In this document: positions 36,150-61,509 of the stretch, one piece after another
Layout: each line of letters starts with the position of its first letter
Position numbering within the stretch: the first letter of the stretch is position 1
Virus record (IMG/VR): IMGVR_UViG_3300046779_000717
Location: 4,197 to 68,196 of that record
Direction: 5' to 3' (one strand)
Source: a virus
Lineage: Duplodnaviria > Caudoviricetes
DNA: 64,000 nucleotides
Position numbers and translations under genes: made by a program
Notes under the pieces: generated by a model
Told to the model about the DNA's origin: nothing
Databases searched by the model: none
Seen by the model: only the letters and a program-made list of their open reading frames with translations

Positions 36150-38359
36150 TATCTTATGAGCTCACTGTGAGAGCCTTTGTTGTCGTATTGTGCAAATTTA
36201 AGGCTTATTTTTGACTTCTTAACCTCTGGAACATACAAGTGCCTTTGCGTTGCCATAATGGCAAGACCAGAACTAATAGATGCGTCATGTTTGGTACGAT
36301 TGTTAATATCAAACCTGGCCCAGTCCTCAAGAGTACGTATGAAAGGCATCACGCCCATCTCGTCTGACGGACGATAAGTTCCCTCGAAATCTACGCCTAC
36401 GTACTTCTCAATATAACTCTCGATAGCTGCAGCGTGTGCTTGCTTTACGTCCTCCGAAGTGTTTGGAATACCACCCAGCTCTATCTCAGTCTTCGACAAC
36501 TTTGACACATGCTTGTCTGGTCTGTTCATCGCAAATGCACGATATCCCCTGTTCTTGAAGTGGTATAATAGTCGTGGCTTGTTATTCTCCACAAGGATCG
36601 GCATGCCATAAAAGAAACACGCCATCAATACATCCTCGAAGAATATCTCTGCCGTCTGTGGTCTTGCAATGTATTCCAGAAAGAACTCGTTCGTTGGTCC
36701 ATCGTCCATGTGGTACTTTGTCAATCCGTGAAGTGATCCGTTAGAACCACCACCACCTACGGCACCAGAGATGTCGTATGGGTCACATCCAAAACATCCC
36801 ATGTGCTCATTGCCTGGCTTGAACTTGCCGTTCACCCTAAGCACTTTGTTCCTCTTGTTTGCGTCTGGAACCCATGACACCAAGAAGCGTCCGTTACGGT
36901 CTGGAGTCCACACAACCTCCGAGTCCTTGACACCATCTCTCCAGTGGAATGACCCACGAGTCACAGACTGAATGCCAGCCATAGAGTCGTTGTAGTCGAT
37001 CTGTTGGTAGATCTTTGTTAAGTTGAACAGAGATGACTTAGACTCGTCCCTAAACGCATGCGACTCTGTGCGTGGAAACTGACGATAGAATTCGTTCAAT
37101 GCGTCAGCGTCTCCCTTAAGGGCCGCAACTTCATTGTCCCAGTAGTCAATAACGCTCTGATATATGTATCCGCCATCAATGCTCTTTACTGGCGTCTCTG
37201 GCTTTTCGAGTACAGGCCACCCATGCTCGTCAATAAACCCTTCAAAGTTCCACTCCATTGGAATGAACAATGAGTAAAGCCCACTCTTGGTCTGTCCGTT
37301 ATTGCTTCTTTTCTTTGGGTCTGAGTCGTAGTACAAGTCCTTGAACCCCGAACCACCCTTGTCAAGCGCGTTTGATGTAGAACCCATCATACACTTCCCG
37401 ATAATCCTAGAACCAAGACGAAGACATGTCTTTGTTACACGCCAGTTGTTCTCAATGTTGTTAGGAGGAAGCCACTTACCGCTTTCGTCATGGATCAACA
37501 GCCTCAACTTCTCACCGTCATAACTGTTGTCAGCCGTGTTCTTCCAGTCAATAGACGTATCAAGACCCTCGATGTCCTCATCGTTCTTGTCCATGTTCTT
37601 CCTGGTGATCTTAGACGCAGGAACACGATAGCCAAGCTCTGTCTTTGGCTTGTCCATACCATCCTGCACCGGCTTGAAGAAGAACGGATAGTTGCTAGAT
37701 ATCGGAACCACCTTGTCCGTAAACATGATCTTGGCGTCATTACCCGTCTTTGACAGGATGCCAAGCCTAGCATTCTTTGTAATTGTTGCCGTATTTACCA
37801 ATTCGGAACTGCTCATAAACGAGAATCCAGAACGCCGGTTCTTCAAGTAGCACATCCCAAAGCACCTAGTGTCGGCCTTGCAAGCCTCCCAGTAGATAAA
37901 GAATATCCTATTTGACTCACGGAACTCTGGAAGACCTACGTCAATCTTCGTCCACTGCAAGTACATGTAGTGAGTGCCAGTAATATACGTCTTCTGCTTT
38001 TTGTTTAGGAACCAGAATCCATTCTCACGCCTATCAAACTCGGTCTCGATGTAGTCAATCCACTTCGTCTTGAACTGGTTGTCGTACTTGTTCCAATCAA
38101 ACATGCTCTTAATCTTGGAGAGTTCTTTTGGATATTCCTGTGGCTGCCACTTGCCGCCTCTGTCTTCTATGTTCGACGGCTTAGGCAGTGCTATTCTTAG
38201 CCCGTTTATCTCATAGATAGGACCAATTGTCCCGTCTTTAGAGATAACGACAAAGTCATAGTTCGGATCGTAGCCATACTTCCACGACTTCTCAGCGTTC
38301 TTTTTGTTCAGAACGTCAGACTTTACTACCTCCTTGAGTACTTGGTATAGCTTTGTCAT
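36149..38359 (-). CDS. terL: Terminase large subunit
   Basis: Walker A KNRRSGFS, Walker B LIHDESGKW, motif MGST, nuclease GCDPYD and HDASISSGLA. Confidence 0.93.
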   Translation of the reverse strand: MTKLYQVLKEVVKSDVLNKKNAEKSWKYGYDPNYDFVVISKDGTIGPIYEINGLRIALPKPSNIEDRGGKWQPQEYPKELSKIKSMFDWNKYDNQFKTKWIDYIETEFDRRENGFWFLNKKQKTYITGTHYMYLQWTKIDVGLPEFRESNRIFFIYWEACKADTRCFGMCYLKNRRSGFSFMSSSELVNTATITKNARLGILSKTGNDAKIMFTDKVVPISSNYPFFFKPVQDGMDKPKTELGYRVPASKITRKNMDKNDEDIEGLDTSIDWKNTADNSYDGEKLRLLIHDESGKWLPPNNIENNWRVTKTCLRLGSRIIGKCMMGSTSNALDKGGSGFKDLYYDSDPKKRSNNGQTKSGLYSLFIPMEWNFEGFIDEHGWPVLEKPETPVKSIDGGYIYQSVIDYWDNEVAALKGDADALNEFYRQFPRTESHAFRDESKSSLFNLTKIYQQIDYNDSMAGIQSVTRGSFHWRDGVKDSEVVWTPDRNGRFLVSWVPDANKRNKVLRVNGKFKPGNEHMGCFGCDPYDISGAVGGGGSNGSLHGLTKYHMDDGPTNEFFLEYIARPQTAEIFFEDVLMACFFYGMPILVENNKPRLLYHFKNRGYRAFAMNRPDKHVSKLSKTEIELGGIPNTSEDVKQAHAAAIESYIEKYVGVDFEGTYRPSDEMGVMPFIRTLEDWARFDINNRTKHDASISSGLAIMATQRHLYVPEVKKSKISLKFAQYDNKGSHSELIR

Positions 38360-56808: not shown

Positions 56809-57021
56809 GCCGTTGTGTCGTTTTTTGGGTTCCCTATTCTCTTTATATATTTTACTACTCTTTATATATTTTTTTAAATCCTTATTTAAAGTAAAAAAAT
56901 CGACACAAATAAAGTAATATAATAGAAATCAATGAGTTAGAGTATGCCGCTTCAAGTGTCACTTTAAGTAGAAGCGACACATGTCCACAAAAAATCGACA
57001 CTTATCAACAAAAATCGACAC
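56809..57021. repeat. Origin-like element B, homologous to 344-557
   Basis: GTGTCG at 56815; TCGACAC at 56900, 56995, 57015; GCGACAC at 56974; AT tract; exact IHF consensus AATCAATGAGTTA at 56927-56939. Confidence 0.6.
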
Positions 57022-57076
57022 AAGACAAGCCGTATTTTCGGCTTGTTGTTGATGCCCGTTGTTATTGTACACAATA

Positions 57077-57101
57077 CAAAAAGCCACCCTTTTGAGGTGG
57101 C
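57077..57101 (-). terminator. Rho-independent terminator
   Basis: GCCACC/GGTGGC stem, U-tract on the minus strand, after the 57130-57309 gene. Confidence 0.7.
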
Positions 57102-57129
57102 CTTCATGAATAAGGTTAGATACTAGTTG

Positions 57130-57309
57130 TTACTTACAGCTTCTTTTGACCCTCATTGTCATCGGCATGTCTTTCATTTTAGATGCCATTGACATGGCTT
57201 CGGCCATCTGCATGGTCTTTTTCATCTGCTTCATCTGACTCTTGGTCTCAAGCAATTTTGCGATGCCAGTCGACTGAGGAGGCATAGGATTGTTTAATGG
57301 TCTTTTCAT
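57130..57309 (-). CDS. Small Met/Lys-rich protein (59 aa, not in ORF track)
   Basis: MKRPLNNPMPPQSTGIAKLLETKSQMKQMKKTMQMAEAMSMASKMKDMPMTMRVKRSCK; promoter 4 nt upstream. Confidence 0.75.
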   Translation of the reverse strand: MKRPLNNPMPPQSTGIAKLLETKSQMKQMKKTMQMAEAMSMASKMKDMPMTMRVKRSCK

Positions 57310-57351
57310 GTAGCAAAGATAGCTAAACTATGTTTAGTTATGTTGGAAGCG

Positions 57352-57486
57352 TCACCATATAAACGTAACACGGATCAAACCAAGGTTGATGTCAAGCTCC
57401 TGATGCTCGCCAGGATAGTTAGACTCAAAGTACTCGACGCCTACCAGAAAGGCGGAGGGAAACAGTAATGCAATTTCAATGCCCAT
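57352..57486 (-). CDS. Small hypothetical protein (44 aa, not in ORF track)
   Basis: MGIEIALLFPSAFLVGVEYFESNYPGEHQELDINLGLIRVTFIW; TACATTTG 4 nt upstream. Confidence 0.7.
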   Translation of the reverse strand: MGIEIALLFPSAFLVGVEYFESNYPGEHQELDINLGLIRVTFIW

Positions 57487-57687
57487 AAGGCAAATGTAAA
57501 CCTAAAAGTTGAGAGTTTCAAGATGTGTTTGTACCTATAGGTATAATACCGGGGAGTATCAGATAAGGGGACTCTTTGGGTTATCCCCCCACATTCTGCG
57601 CCCGGCCCCCGATCGGAAAGTCGATTATTTTGACCCATGCCCCTTGCGTTTTGAAAGTTCGGCCCGAAATTTCTACCTTTTTGGGCG

Positions 57688-57721
57688 GTGCTACCTGTCC
57701 GCCCCTGTGCTACCTGTCCGC
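57688..57721. repeat. 15-bp direct repeat in the GC-rich divergent intergenic region
   Basis: GTGCTACCTGTCCGC at 57688-57702 and 57707-57721. Confidence 0.8.
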
Positions 57722-57877
57722 GCCCGTCAACACGCGGGAAACTGCGGAAACACTGAGGGTTTCCTCTGCATCCTCACACACACGCCTAGATAAACTTTTG
57801 TCCCTGTATCTCGTTGACTGATTTGCGATTTCTTTTAAAAATATTTTGAAAATAATTCAATTATTTTTGTGAAAATG

Positions 57878-57908
57878 TTTGTAGGTATCAACATAAGTAG
57901 TATATTTG
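57878..57908 (+). promoter_or_regulatory. Consensus Bacteroidota early promoter
   Basis: TTTG (57878-81), 19 nt spacer, TATATTTG (57901-08), preceded by an AT-rich UP-like tract. Confidence 0.85.
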
Positions 57909-57931
57909 TGTACCCTTAAGAATTAAACGAC

Positions 57932-58207
57932 ATGAACACACAAATCAACCTAACCGAACTAGAGCAGACCTTGCTCACCGAATTCATTGGAAGTCTTTAT
58001 GCCGAGGAAGGCTATTCAGACGTCGACGCAAAAGACCTTGCACAGGGAACAGGTATCGACATTAAGATAGTACGAGGCGCACTAGGCAGTCTAGTTAAGA
58101 AAGGCATTGTATCAATTGAGACTATGCAAAATTGGGGCGAGAAGGCCTATGAAATTATCTATCTGAACGAGGATTATTGGTACATGCATCCAAGATGGGG
58201 CAAATAG
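57932..58207 (+). CDS. Winged-helix DNA-binding protein, first early gene
   Basis: LTELEQTLL...DAKDLAQGTGIDIKIVRGALGSLVKKGIV. Confidence 0.7.
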   Translation: MNTQINLTELEQTLLTEFIGSLYAEEGYSDVDAKDLAQGTGIDIKIVRGALGSLVKKGIVSIETMQNWGEKAYEIIYLNEDYWYMHPRWGK

Positions 58208-58260
58208 GTTAACTGACGAGTCCTTAATGGACGAAACGGGCAGAGATGCCCGTCTTAACC
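58207..58260 (+). ncRNA. Type I hammerhead ribozyme
   Basis: GGTTAA-CTGACGA-GTCC(TTAAT)GGAC-GAAA-CGGGCA(GAGA)TGCCCG-TC-TTAACC: complete catalytic core and three perfect stems; GUC cleavage after 58254. Confidence 0.95.
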
Positions 58261-58274
58261 AAACCAACAAAGAC

Positions 58275-58457
58275 ATGGAATTCTTATTAATCAACGACGG
58301 CAGAATTGTAAAGGCCAAAAACAAGGTAGAAGCGCTAAGGTCATCGGGCTATGATTTTATCTATTGGGAAGGCAACACACCATATGGTGTAGAATATCCC
58401 GCTAGCAAGCGTAAGGCATACGCCATCAGAAAGCCCAAGAATGCAATTTGGAAATAA
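58275..58457 (+). CDS. Hypothetical protein
   Basis: Start moved to ATG 58275; the tracked start 58227 lies inside the ribozyme. Confidence 0.7.
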   Translation: MEFLLINDGRIVKAKNKVEALRSSGYDFIYWEGNTPYGVEYPASKRKAYAIRKPKNAIWK

Positions 58458-58469
58458 ACACACAAAGAC

Positions 58470-58742
58470 ATGAAAATCTATTCAGTAAAACTCAGCGAAG
58501 ACGGAACTGCTCGTCAAGTTTACACCAACGTCAAGGCGTTGTACAATGGAATCGAGACCTACGGGTACACCCCGAAATCAATACACATTGATGCCAACAA
58601 CGACATGCCTTACAACTACAACAATTTGCTCAAGGCAATCAAGGACTCGTCAAACGATGGTCAGTACTACGCAATCGCATTCATCAACTGCGACAACGGA
58701 AGTGATATAACCATAGTAGAACACGAAATCATATCAAAATAA
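58470..58742 (+). CDS. Hypothetical protein
   Basis: 90 aa early gene. Confidence 0.7.
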   Translation: MKIYSVKLSEDGTARQVYTNVKALYNGIETYGYTPKSIHIDANNDMPYNYNNLLKAIKDSSNDGQYYAIAFINCDNGSDITIVEHEIISK

Positions 58743-58792
58743 ATTTGGTAGACTCAGAAATAATAACTAAAATCGTGAACAATTTAATCAAC

Positions 58793-59191
58793 ATGAATAC
58801 ACTTATGCAAACCCCAAGAAATTTAGTTGCCTTGTTGCGCAACGCGGAGACAAACAACGAAGGTTTCTCCTACAACATCAACAACGGAGACGTAAACCCC
58901 GACAAAGGATTTATGGTATCGCGTATCGGTCACGAAGAGATTGTGCCACAAGGCGCAGACCTAATGGCCTATGGCAAACACTACTTCTATCGCCATGCCG
59001 AGGCATTGGCCGAGAGCAACGCCTACATGGGATGTTGGTACAACGGCAGTCAGTTTGTATTTGACGTATCAGACAACGTACAAACCAAAGAGGTAGCCAT
59101 CGCATTGGGCGAACTGAACAACCAAGAGGCGATTTGGGATTGCGCATCGGGCTCTGAGTACCGATTGATGAGAGAGGGGGACGCGATATGA
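58793..59191 (+). CDS. Conserved-looking early protein (possible SAM-lyase-like fold)
   Basis: EGFS...GFMVS...YMGCW...FDVSD...ALGELNNQEAIWD; start ATG 58793. Confidence 0.6.
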   Translation: MNTLMQTPRNLVALLRNAETNNEGFSYNINNGDVNPDKGFMVSRIGHEEIVPQGADLMAYGKHYFYRHAEALAESNAYMGCWYNGSQFVFDVSDNVQTKEVAIALGELNNQEAIWDCASGSEYRLMREGDAI

Positions 59192-59520
59192 AATACAATT
59201 TAGTAATCAGCAGAACTTACGCCACCGAGATTGAGGTGACCGCAGACAACATGGCAGAGGCATGGGATTGGGTAAACCAAAACAGCGACGCCATCTACGA
59301 AGCAGAGATGGAGCAGTGCAACGTCATCAGCGAGGAGACGGACATGAGAGAGATAGGGCCATCATTGAACGAGGCTGAGGAACTTCTCGACCTTGCTCAG
59401 CACATCGGCCGATATCTTGACAAGTACATTCACGTCTCAAGTTATGTCCCAAAGGAGATGAGAGACATCTTGTCACAAATGGCATCACACGCACAAGAAT
59501 ACTACAACGACGAGGATTAA
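59188..59520 (+). CDS. Hypothetical acidic protein
   Basis: YNLVISRTYATEIEVTADNMAEAWD N-terminal motif. Confidence 0.7.
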   Translation: MKYNLVISRTYATEIEVTADNMAEAWDWVNQNSDAIYEAEMEQCNVISEETDMREIGPSLNEAEELLDLAQHIGRYLDKYIHVSSYVPKEMRDILSQMASHAQEYYNDED

Positions 59521-59527
59521 ATCCTCA

Positions 59528-59572
59528 TCCCAAGCCAAAGGAATGCAGTCAGTTCGAGTCTGACCTTGGGAG
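59528..59572 (+). ncRNA. tRNA-like minihelix 1 (acceptor stem and T arm only)
   Basis: TCCCAAG/CTTGGGA, GTCAG-TTCGAGT-CTGAC, 13-nt linker; intergenic. Confidence 0.8.
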
Positions 59573-59591
59573 CAAATTAATAACACAACAT

Positions 59592-59861
59592 ATGAACATT
59601 CGAACAATTTACGCAAGACAAAAGTCAGCAGGTGTTGACTACATGCAACGACTCATCAACAACGGATCGGTTTGGCAGATGGAAGGGTCAATGGGACGCG
59701 AGGCAATGCGCCTACTAGAGGCAGGCATCTGCATGCTACCAAAGAAATCATTCACCGACCACTACGGCAATCGTGTTCCATCACGTGACGAACTGAAAGG
59801 TTGCACAAAGGGAACATACGCCAATGCGGTTAGGTATTGGTCTAATGGATGGGAGGACTAA
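59592..59861 (+). CDS. Hypothetical protein
   Basis: 89 aa; QRLINNGSVWQMEGSMGREAMRLLEAGICML. Confidence 0.7.
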   Translation: MNIRTIYARQKSAGVDYMQRLINNGSVWQMEGSMGREAMRLLEAGICMLPKKSFTDHYGNRVPSRDELKGCTKGTYANAVRYWSNGWED

Positions 59862-59863
59862 TC

Positions 59864-60052
59864 ATGACATTCGACGAAAGAGTAGACATACTGAAAAGAA
59901 TTGGTTTCACAGAGACCCGTGTTGGGATGACAAATGGAACATATGCATTCCTATGGTATCAGATAGACACGGGTGCGATGAGCGACAAAGAATTTAAAGA
60001 ATATTACAATTCAATGACAAATAAATTAGGTTATCAACAAGATAGTAACTAA
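59864..60052 (+). CDS. Hypothetical protein
   Basis: 62 aa from ATG 59864. Confidence 0.6.
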   Translation: MTFDERVDILKRIGFTETRVGMTNGTYAFLWYQIDTGAMSDKEFKEYYNSMTNKLGYQQDSN

Positions 60053-61257: not shown

Positions 61258-61304
61258 GCACGGGATATGAACGGATATATGGGGTTCAAATCCCCACCCG
61301 TGCG
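61258..61304 (+). ncRNA. tRNA-like minihelix 2
   Basis: GCACGGG/CCCGTGC, TGGGG-TTCAAAT-CCCCA, 15-nt linker ATATGAACGGATATA. Confidence 0.8.
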
Positions 61305-61387: not shown

Positions 61388-61509
61388 AGCAGAGTGGCGA
61401 CATGGTTGTCGCATGAGAGATGATGGACTAATTGCCATCCCTGTTGCATAGCAGAAAGTAGCTTAAATAAAGCGCTCATTTGCAGGTTCGAGTCCTGCCT
61501 CTGCTACCA
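61388..61509 (+). ncRNA. tRNA-like element with branched 57-nt insert replacing the anticodon loop, CCA encoded
   Basis: AGCAGAG/CTCTGCT+ACCA, D arm GCGAC-ATGGTT-GTCGC, ATGAG/CTCAT stem, T arm GCAGG-TTCGAGT-CCTGC. Confidence 0.8.

Follow-up and report, generated by a model that had tools for sequence, protein, structure and literature searches.

A probable self-cleaving type I hammerhead ribozyme at the boundary of early genes 1 and 2 in an uncultured podophage of Flavobacteriia type

We analyzed a window of 64,000 nucleotides, which spans bases 4197-68196 of an IMG/VR virus record; the record is 68,196 bp long and is classified as complete by CheckV. Its phage genes include those for a portal protein, the large terminase (TerL), GroEL, a primase-helicase and giant structural proteins. 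The phage is an uncultured, podovirus-like virus of 68 kb and of Flavobacteriia type, with kin among Flavobacterium and Cellulophaga phages. The best GenBank matches of its terminase are to an uncultured podovirus (MW202828.1, 70% amino acid identity) and then to the Flavobacterium elemo phages (42%), and identity to Cellulophaga and Tenacibaculum phages is 31-38%. Small plus-strand ORFs run from position 57932 to the end of the record.

A match to a Bacteroidota-type promoter sits 24 nt upstream of the ATG of gene 1, the first ORF of this run (Table 1). The pattern TTTG-N17-23-TAnnTTTG has three matches in the window, of which this one alone is near the early genes. On the basis of the Bacteroidota consensus we take it to be a promoter, and the early transcript likely starts there. 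We found no terminator-like site on the plus strand between gene 1 and gene 2. The product of gene 1 had been annotated initially as a winged helix-turn-helix regulator. Matches to winged-helix families are indeed seen, but all are sub-threshold: Pfam DnaD_N reaches 26.5 bits (E = 7e-6) against a cut-off of 27, and TrmB, GntR and MarR match weakly. In PHROGs, gene 1 matches families of unknown function.

Table 1. Coordinates of the hammerhead, its gene context and selected relatives. Positions are those of the window unless another record is named.
Feature	Position	Strand	Basis
Presumed Bacteroidota-type promoter, TTTG / 19-nt spacer / TATATTTG	57878-57908	+	pattern match
Gene 1 (P0001), 91 aa, winged-helix-like	57932-58207	+	ORF list, translation, weak Pfam matches
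Type I hammerhead, whole element	58207-58260	+	sequence reading, fold, covariance model
Stem I, 5' strand GGUUAA	58207-58212	+	sequence reading, fold, model R1
Catalytic core C3-A9, CUGACGA, N7 = C	58213-58219	+	sequence reading
Stem II hairpin GUCC/GGAC, 4 bp, loop UUAAU	58220-58232	+	reading and fold
Core G12 A13 A14	58233-58235	+	sequence reading
Stem III hairpin, 7 bp from A15.1-U16.1 outward	58236-58253	+	reading and fold
GNRA tetraloop GAGA capping stem III	58243-58246	+	reading and fold
C17, predicted scissile bond 58254/58255	58254	+	hammerhead numbering applied to sequence
Stem I, 3' strand UUAACC; predicted 5' end of downstream product	58255-58260	+	reading, fold, model R1
Predicted post-cleavage leader, 20 nt, A/C-rich	58255-58274	+	fold and motif search
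Gene 2 (P0002), 60 aa, no recognizable family	58275-58457	+	ORF list, family searches
AAAGACATG sites	58269-58277, 58464-58472	+	
AAAGACATG sites	37425-37433, 57166-57174	-	
Seven hammerheads of G002 (contig of L145), 3.1 kb	G002:C1:763-3836		model R1
Nine hammerheads of G003 (contig of L040), 4.3 kb	G003:C1:4448-8718		model R1
Type I hammerhead of vB_FspP_elemoE_6-9C, 48.4 bits	NC_055854.1 16304-16361	-	model R1
Predicted cut in elemoE_6-9C, after C16310	NC_055854.1 16310	-	
Type I hammerhead of phi18:3, 49.3 bits	NC_021794.1 21904-21958 (L175 ~1501-1555)	-	model R1
Predicted cut in phi18:3, after C21910	NC_021794.1 21910	-	

The two genes are separated by a type I hammerhead. The initial annotation had called this motif perfect, with the last base of the upstream TAG as the first G of stem I and the downstream ATG 20 nt past a cut after C58254. 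Our reading agrees: every listed element lies where it had been placed, the stop occupies 58205-58207 and shares its final base with stem I, and the distance from cut to ATG is as given. The placement between the first two early genes also holds, and the adjoining genes are co-directional. From 5' to 3' the element consists of one strand of stem I, the core, hairpin II, the string GAAA (58233-58236, plus strand), hairpin III, C17 and the other strand of stem I. Stem I is open and carries both ends, while stems II and III are closed by loops, which is the type I topology.

Judged by published core criteria (C3 U4 G5 A6 N7 G8 A9 G12 A13 A14 A15.1 U16.1 H17; Perreault et al., 2011, PMC3088659), all 13 core nucleotides are present, at 58213-58219, 58233-58236, 58253 and 58254. 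The core-adjacent Watson-Crick pairs 10.1-11.1, 1.1-2.1 and 15.1-16.1 are all formed (G58220-C58232, U58255-A58212 and A58236-U58253, respectively), and the helices of 6, 4 and 7 bp contain standard pairs throughout, with zero mispairs or bulges, again in agreement with the 2011 study. The three-way junction is both the minimum free energy (MFE) and the centroid structure computed with ViennaRNA for 58195-58275 (-21.9 kcal/mol, z = -2.5), and the same holds when 254 nt of context are folded. At 58207-58260 we identified neither a bulge in stem I nor a helix extension or pseudoknot that could provide the contacts for fast cleavage at physiological Mg2+. Unpaired A's lie beside stem I, at the positions where related hammerheads carry them (-1 in 61%, +1 in 64% and +2 in 59%).

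A strict descriptor combining CUGANGA, hairpin II, GAAA, an A-U-closed hairpin III, H17 and stem I returns a single site in the full 68,196-bp record, 58207-58260, and no second copy was found in that record even with relaxed stems. As a null set we used 300 first-order Markov random 68-kb genomes, searched on both strands; four sites appeared with loose stems (at least 4/3/3 bp) and none with stems of at least 6/4/5 bp. A simple linear pattern was uninformative, with 8 matches against 14 expected.

Rfam responds poorly to this element. A scan of the whole window in gathering mode gave no match at all, and in evalue mode the hammerhead matches were all sub-threshold. Hammerhead_1 (RF00163), the model that had been proposed as a check on the initial annotation, missed its gathering threshold of 34, scoring 17.1 bits (E = 0.72) in a permissive search. 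RAGATH-1 (RF03152), the best-scoring family, reached 23.7 bits (E = 0.25) against a threshold of 56.3. Among about 25 hammerheads in 14 related loci only two reach the Hammerhead_1 threshold, at 35.9 bits. Most relatives thus miss it too, and we attribute the low score in the window to model coverage. We therefore turn to R1, a covariance model from 48 type I hammerheads on other viral contigs, with the window excluded. Its sole match in the window is 58207-58260 on the plus strand, at 63.3 bits (E = 3e-20) and over model positions 1-52 of 52. Other ribozyme families gave no match at E <= 1 between 57300 and 64000.

The class that R1 delimits consists of phage type I hammerheads with a 6-bp stem I and a 4-bp stem II. 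The core and stem II string occurs at no fewer than 120 loci (at least) in IMG/VR viral contigs. The regular expression behind this class test covers only CUGANGA, GUCC, a loop and GGAC-GAAAC, and nothing 3' thereof. Among the matches listed, 116 of 127 distinct sites (91%) have the full remaining hammerhead features, namely a stem I of at least 4 bp, a stem III of at least 3 bp closed by A15.1-U16.1, and H17. The test is not circular, because the sites were selected without regard to stem I, stem III or H17. In alignment A1, 100% of cells are paired and 13 of 15 pairs covary, a count that is illustrative only, as the rows were picked by a pairing descriptor. The variants seen in the window (N7 = C, H17 = C, loop II UUAAU, loop III GAGA) are all common in the class: N7 is C in 58 of 170 related hammerheads, UUAAU ranks second among loop II variants, and a GNRA or UNCG loop caps stem III in 71 of 152. 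The exact string of stem I, core and stem II is shared with two other viral contigs only (L120 and L169). The element at 58207-58260 belongs to a conserved phage ribozyme class.

Members of this class show a recurrent position at gene boundaries. In a set of 152 unique ribozymes, 78 of 139 have their next ATG 15-35 nt past the cut, compared with 14% at random positions, and 85 of 146 have an upstream stop no more than 8 nt from the 5' edge. The latter figure is partly automatic, since UUAA-type stem I sequences and the CUGA core contain stop codons, but it still shows that ORFs reach right to the ribozyme. In the closest group, 28 ribozymes on contigs with protein-level kinship or the same stem I, the next ORF-opening ATG is 19-37 nt past the cut in 25, and the upstream stop is within about 15 nt of the ribozyme 5' end in most cases in which an upstream ORF was found. 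The window fits this layout, with a 1-nt overlap of stop and stem I, both genes on the strand of the ribozyme, and an ATG 20 nt past the cut. The median distance from cut to ATG is 24 nt in low-GC contigs, where a Shine-Dalgarno-like motif is found in 9 of 39, and 27 nt in higher-GC contigs, where it is found in 50 of 84. The idea of a device specific to hosts that do not use Shine-Dalgarno motifs is weakened by this, as the spacing is the same in contigs that have such motifs.

In the window, no Shine-Dalgarno-like motif was found in the leader at 58255-58274, and the start codons of the phage are without such motifs. When 58255-58330 is folded, its first 21 nt stay single-stranded, and shuffled sequences give a stronger fold than the predicted MFE of -4.8 kcal/mol. 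Other early genes of the window follow 12-nt gaps that hold no ribozyme; internal initiation therefore does not depend on the ribozyme. Four copies of the start context AAAGACATG are present in the window against 1.1 expected, and two of them stand at consecutive early genes, which suggests a preferred initiation context independent of Shine-Dalgarno motifs. Loop II also contains an ATG (58227-58229) from which the gene 2 reading frame runs without a stop up to 58275. This is the start chosen for the gene 2 ORF by the ORF lister (58227-58457), and gene callers may add 16 codons in this way. Because predicted cleavage removes this ATG, 58275 would be the functional start of gene 2.

We further examined how the locus and the ribozyme are distributed among relatives. 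A blastn search of 57000-60000 against GenBank phages gave no match, and synteny and sequence searches found no close relative of the exact locus. Homologs of gene 1 occur in 32 viral loci at 46-59% identity, and neither the descriptor nor Rfam found a hammerhead in any of these; relatives of gene 2 were not found in viral contigs. Thus, the ribozyme is not tied to these two genes. Many hammerhead-bearing contigs nonetheless share GroEL, TerL and the primase-helicase with the window phage at 45-57% amino acid identity, and their hammerheads lie, as in the window, in a region of small genes that diverges from the GroEL side.

Whole-record searches with R1 gave one copy each in G001 and G008, three each in G004, G005 and G007, four in G006, seven in G002 and nine in G003. 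The copies of one record are clustered and all on one strand. The arrays of G002 and G003 are co-directional throughout, with roughly one hammerhead per small gene. Of the named phages, Flavobacterium phages elemoE_6-9C and elemoA_7-9A and Cellulophaga phage phi18:3 have one copy each. No copy was found in MW202828.1, the closest GenBank relative by TerL, in Cellulophaga phages phi13:2 and phi38:1, or in Tenacibaculum phage Gundel_1, and the ribozyme is therefore dispensable in this phage group.

None of the hammerheads in the three cultured phages is annotated. As in the window, the G of the preceding TAG in elemoE_6-9C is at the same time part of stem I, and in phi18:3 the ribozyme occupies the 90-nt gap between gp050 and gp049. 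KNV12_gp65, a 35-aa RefSeq CDS on the plus strand (NC_055854.1 16289-16396; L168 2790-2897), runs antisense over the elemoE_6-9C hammerhead; as it stands amid a run of minus-strand genes, it is probably a spurious ORF call. In two contigs, the hammerheads at L135 3533-3629 (minus strand) and L138 7026-7119 (plus strand) carry an insert of 40-60 nt in stem III, which contains a twice-repeated GAGTCCGCAAA-like unit.

Taken from the sequence, the element at 58207-58260 is with high probability a functional type I hammerhead in the early transcript of a Flavobacteriia-type podophage. The best reading of the locus is that the early polycistron would be cleaved in cis between gene 1 and gene 2, because there is one promoter, no terminator was found, and relatives have the same layout. 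Transcription from 57878-57908 would pass through gene 1 into the ribozyme, and the three-way junction would fold as soon as transcription has completed stem I with its 3' strand (58255-58260). The 2'-OH of C58254 would then attack its own 3' phosphate and break the bond between C58254 and U58255. The predicted upstream product is the mRNA of gene 1, in which the still complete stop codon would lie 47 nt short of a newly formed 3' end consisting of the compact body of stems II and III and bearing a 2',3'-cyclic phosphate. The downstream product would begin with 5'-OH-UUAACC and comprise the unstructured, A/C-rich leader of 20 nt, the ATG of gene 2 and the remaining early genes. The computed association of the two products is only about -6 to -7 kcal/mol, so they should separate, and the cut should be effectively irreversible because a 6-bp stem I is too weak to keep them joined. 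Trans cleavage was rejected as a function: substrate-like GTCTTAACC sites occur at chance frequency, with 14 observed and 14.4 expected.

Such a cut would uncouple gene 1 from the other early genes, leaving decay and translation of both parts independent, and would give the downstream message a standard, context-free 5' leader. From general bacterial RNA biology, an RNA with a 5'-OH end would be expected to escape 5'-monophosphate-dependent decay, and one whose structured 3' end bears a cyclic phosphate to withstand tailing and attack by 3' exonucleases. With these end properties the two halves of the transcript could differ in lifetime, as the initial annotation had suggested for the downstream mRNA. 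An insulating role, in which cleavage supplies the standard short leader, appears equally plausible beside different lifetimes, and the two are not exclusive.

Whether insulation of translation, and not differential decay, might be the main job of a real ribozyme is a separate question, to which we give a tentative answer: possible, but somewhat unlikely. Here the leader of gene 2 would be short, standard, unstructured and about as long as one 30S footprint regardless of the preceding sequence, and the ribozyme would be a natural counterpart to RiboJ-like synthetic insulators, allowing small early genes to be swapped between phages. The narrow spacing from cut to ATG (class medians of 24-27 nt; a range of 19-37 nt for 25 of the closest 28 ribozymes) fits this, as do the predicted lack of structure in the leader of the 3' product, the stem I and leader sequences that ribozymes of one contig share while the flanked genes differ, and a gene content near ribozymes that is not conserved among relatives. 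However, the window has other internal early genes that initiate after gaps of 12 nt lacking a ribozyme, the distance from cut to ATG does not change with the presence of Shine-Dalgarno-like motifs and so has no tie to one mode of initiation, and insulation is in any case compatible with cleavage of the polycistron as the main explanation. Alternatively, the ribozyme could chiefly be a mobile or recombination module, a repeated 50-nt boundary sequence that moves along with gene cassettes or favors their exchange and whose cleavage is incidental. The patchy presence in related phages (0 to 9 copies), the identical stem I GGUUAA/UUAACC in several contigs with differing flanking genes, and the frequent link of hammerheads to selfish elements (PMC3088659) are consistent with such a module. 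Against it, the stems covary and the core is invariant, which indicates selection on the RNA fold and not on DNA identity alone; the copies of each record lie on one strand between co-directional ORFs; and the single copy in the window genome leaves no local recombination partner. We regard this explanation as improbable.

That the motif arose by chance, or is an inactive relic that does not cleave, is very unlikely, and we give it hardly any credence. Scores below the Rfam gathering thresholds would fit this origin, as would the failure to identify a tertiary contact between stem I and loop II and the occurrence of a single copy with no close relative showing conservation at the locus. On the other side, a comparable motif was found in 0 of 300 random genomes, the independent class model R1 scores the element at 63.3 bits (E = 3e-20), there is zero deviation at core positions or core-adjacent pairs, and loops II and III are among the commonest variants of the class.

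Hammerheads of all three types are known from bacteria in the hundreds (Perreault et al., 2011; PMC3088659). The same study described prophage clusters of hammerheads that flank single genes, with native transcripts of about 2 kb that cleave in vitro and in E. coli, and proposed processing of long phage transcripts as a role. In haloviruses HF1/HF2, a hammerhead lies 13 nt upstream of an early-gene start, compared with 20 nt in the window, and the 5' end mapped there is no more than 3 nt away from the site of cleavage (PMC3088659). A 2019 review still considered the function of hammerheads encoded in bacterial and phage genomes unproven (PMC6765202). In the literature searched, no paper joins hammerheads with Cellulophaga phages or links them to Flavobacterium phages. 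The window element has the same consensus core and three-helix junction as the phage hammerheads of Perreault et al. (2011), lies likewise between co-directional phage genes of a polycistronic unit, and has the same proposed role, here predicted, of cutting long phage transcripts to gene-length mRNAs. It differs in its host group (Flavobacteriia podophages), in being a single copy and not part of a cluster, and in a stem I of only 6 bp that is open-ended and directly at a stop codon. Phage hammerheads are thus already known, and 58207-58260 is a clean further example, not a new kind.

Rfam RF00163, whose consensus derives from Schistosoma and newt satellites, has the type I topology in common with the window element, and the core and stem II string (CUGACGA-GUCC...GGAC-GAAAC) is identical. 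Stem I of the Schistosoma hammerhead likewise runs for 6 bp until it is interrupted, matching the 6 bp of the window. In the window, however, stem III is longer than in the model and stem I is not continued past an internal loop. For RF03152, the hammerhead part is aligned end to end, but the 5' accessory hairpin is unformed in the window, with mismatched pairs and a gap in the alignment. Insulators of the RiboJ type are synthetic constructs with a hammerhead between promoter and coding sequence, where cis-cleavage strips off the RNA ahead of the cut so that the message opens with a short, defined leader carrying a 5'-OH, an outcome comparable to that predicted for the window. Unlike these, the window element is natural, lies between two genes and not after a promoter, has no added hairpin that exposes a ribosome-binding site, and has a putative insulating role.

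A single element adds little alone; the layout statistics, the poor coverage by Rfam and the cultured examples add modest value. They describe a class of type I hammerheads that Rfam mostly misses, with a common order of stop, ribozyme, leader of about 20-30 nt and ATG, and with copies that vary from 0 to 9 among related Flavobacteriia podophages. As elemoE_6-9C, elemoA_7-9A and phi18:3 have known hosts (Flavobacterium sp. BAL314 for elemoE_6-9C and Cellulophaga baltica #18 for phi18:3), their unannotated copies make the function directly testable. Annotation can also be corrected, at the antisense RefSeq CDS of elemoE_6-9C and at a possibly mis-called start of gene 2 in loop II. A bolder and doubtful proposal is that ribozyme and fixed-length leader form a transferable expression unit of phage early regions. 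If so, cleavage would set the 5'-OH end ahead of the next start codon by roughly the length of a 30S footprint, and every small early gene would then have a separate message with a short leader, translated independently of its neighbors and protected against 5'-end-dependent decay. The stop abutting stem I would couple ribozyme folding to release of the ribosome from the upstream gene, and the early transcript would be divided into more or fewer parts according to copy number (0-9 in this phage group).

Several other RNA matches were observed. In the window, 61388-61506 (plus strand, 119 nt) matches the Rfam tRNA model at 33.1 bits (threshold 29) with permissive filters only; neither ARAGORN nor the whole-window scan in gathering mode reported it. 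Positions 61258-61303 give a weak mascRNA-like match. One hammerhead-bearing contig also has the DUF805b RNA motif (RF02914) at L118 250-282 on the minus strand (38.9 bits, threshold 35.6). Two large phage contigs that encode a gene 1 homolog have a GOLLD RNA, at L016 1424-1834 (284 bits) and L032 984-1391 (289 bits), in both cases directly 5' of a long tRNA array.
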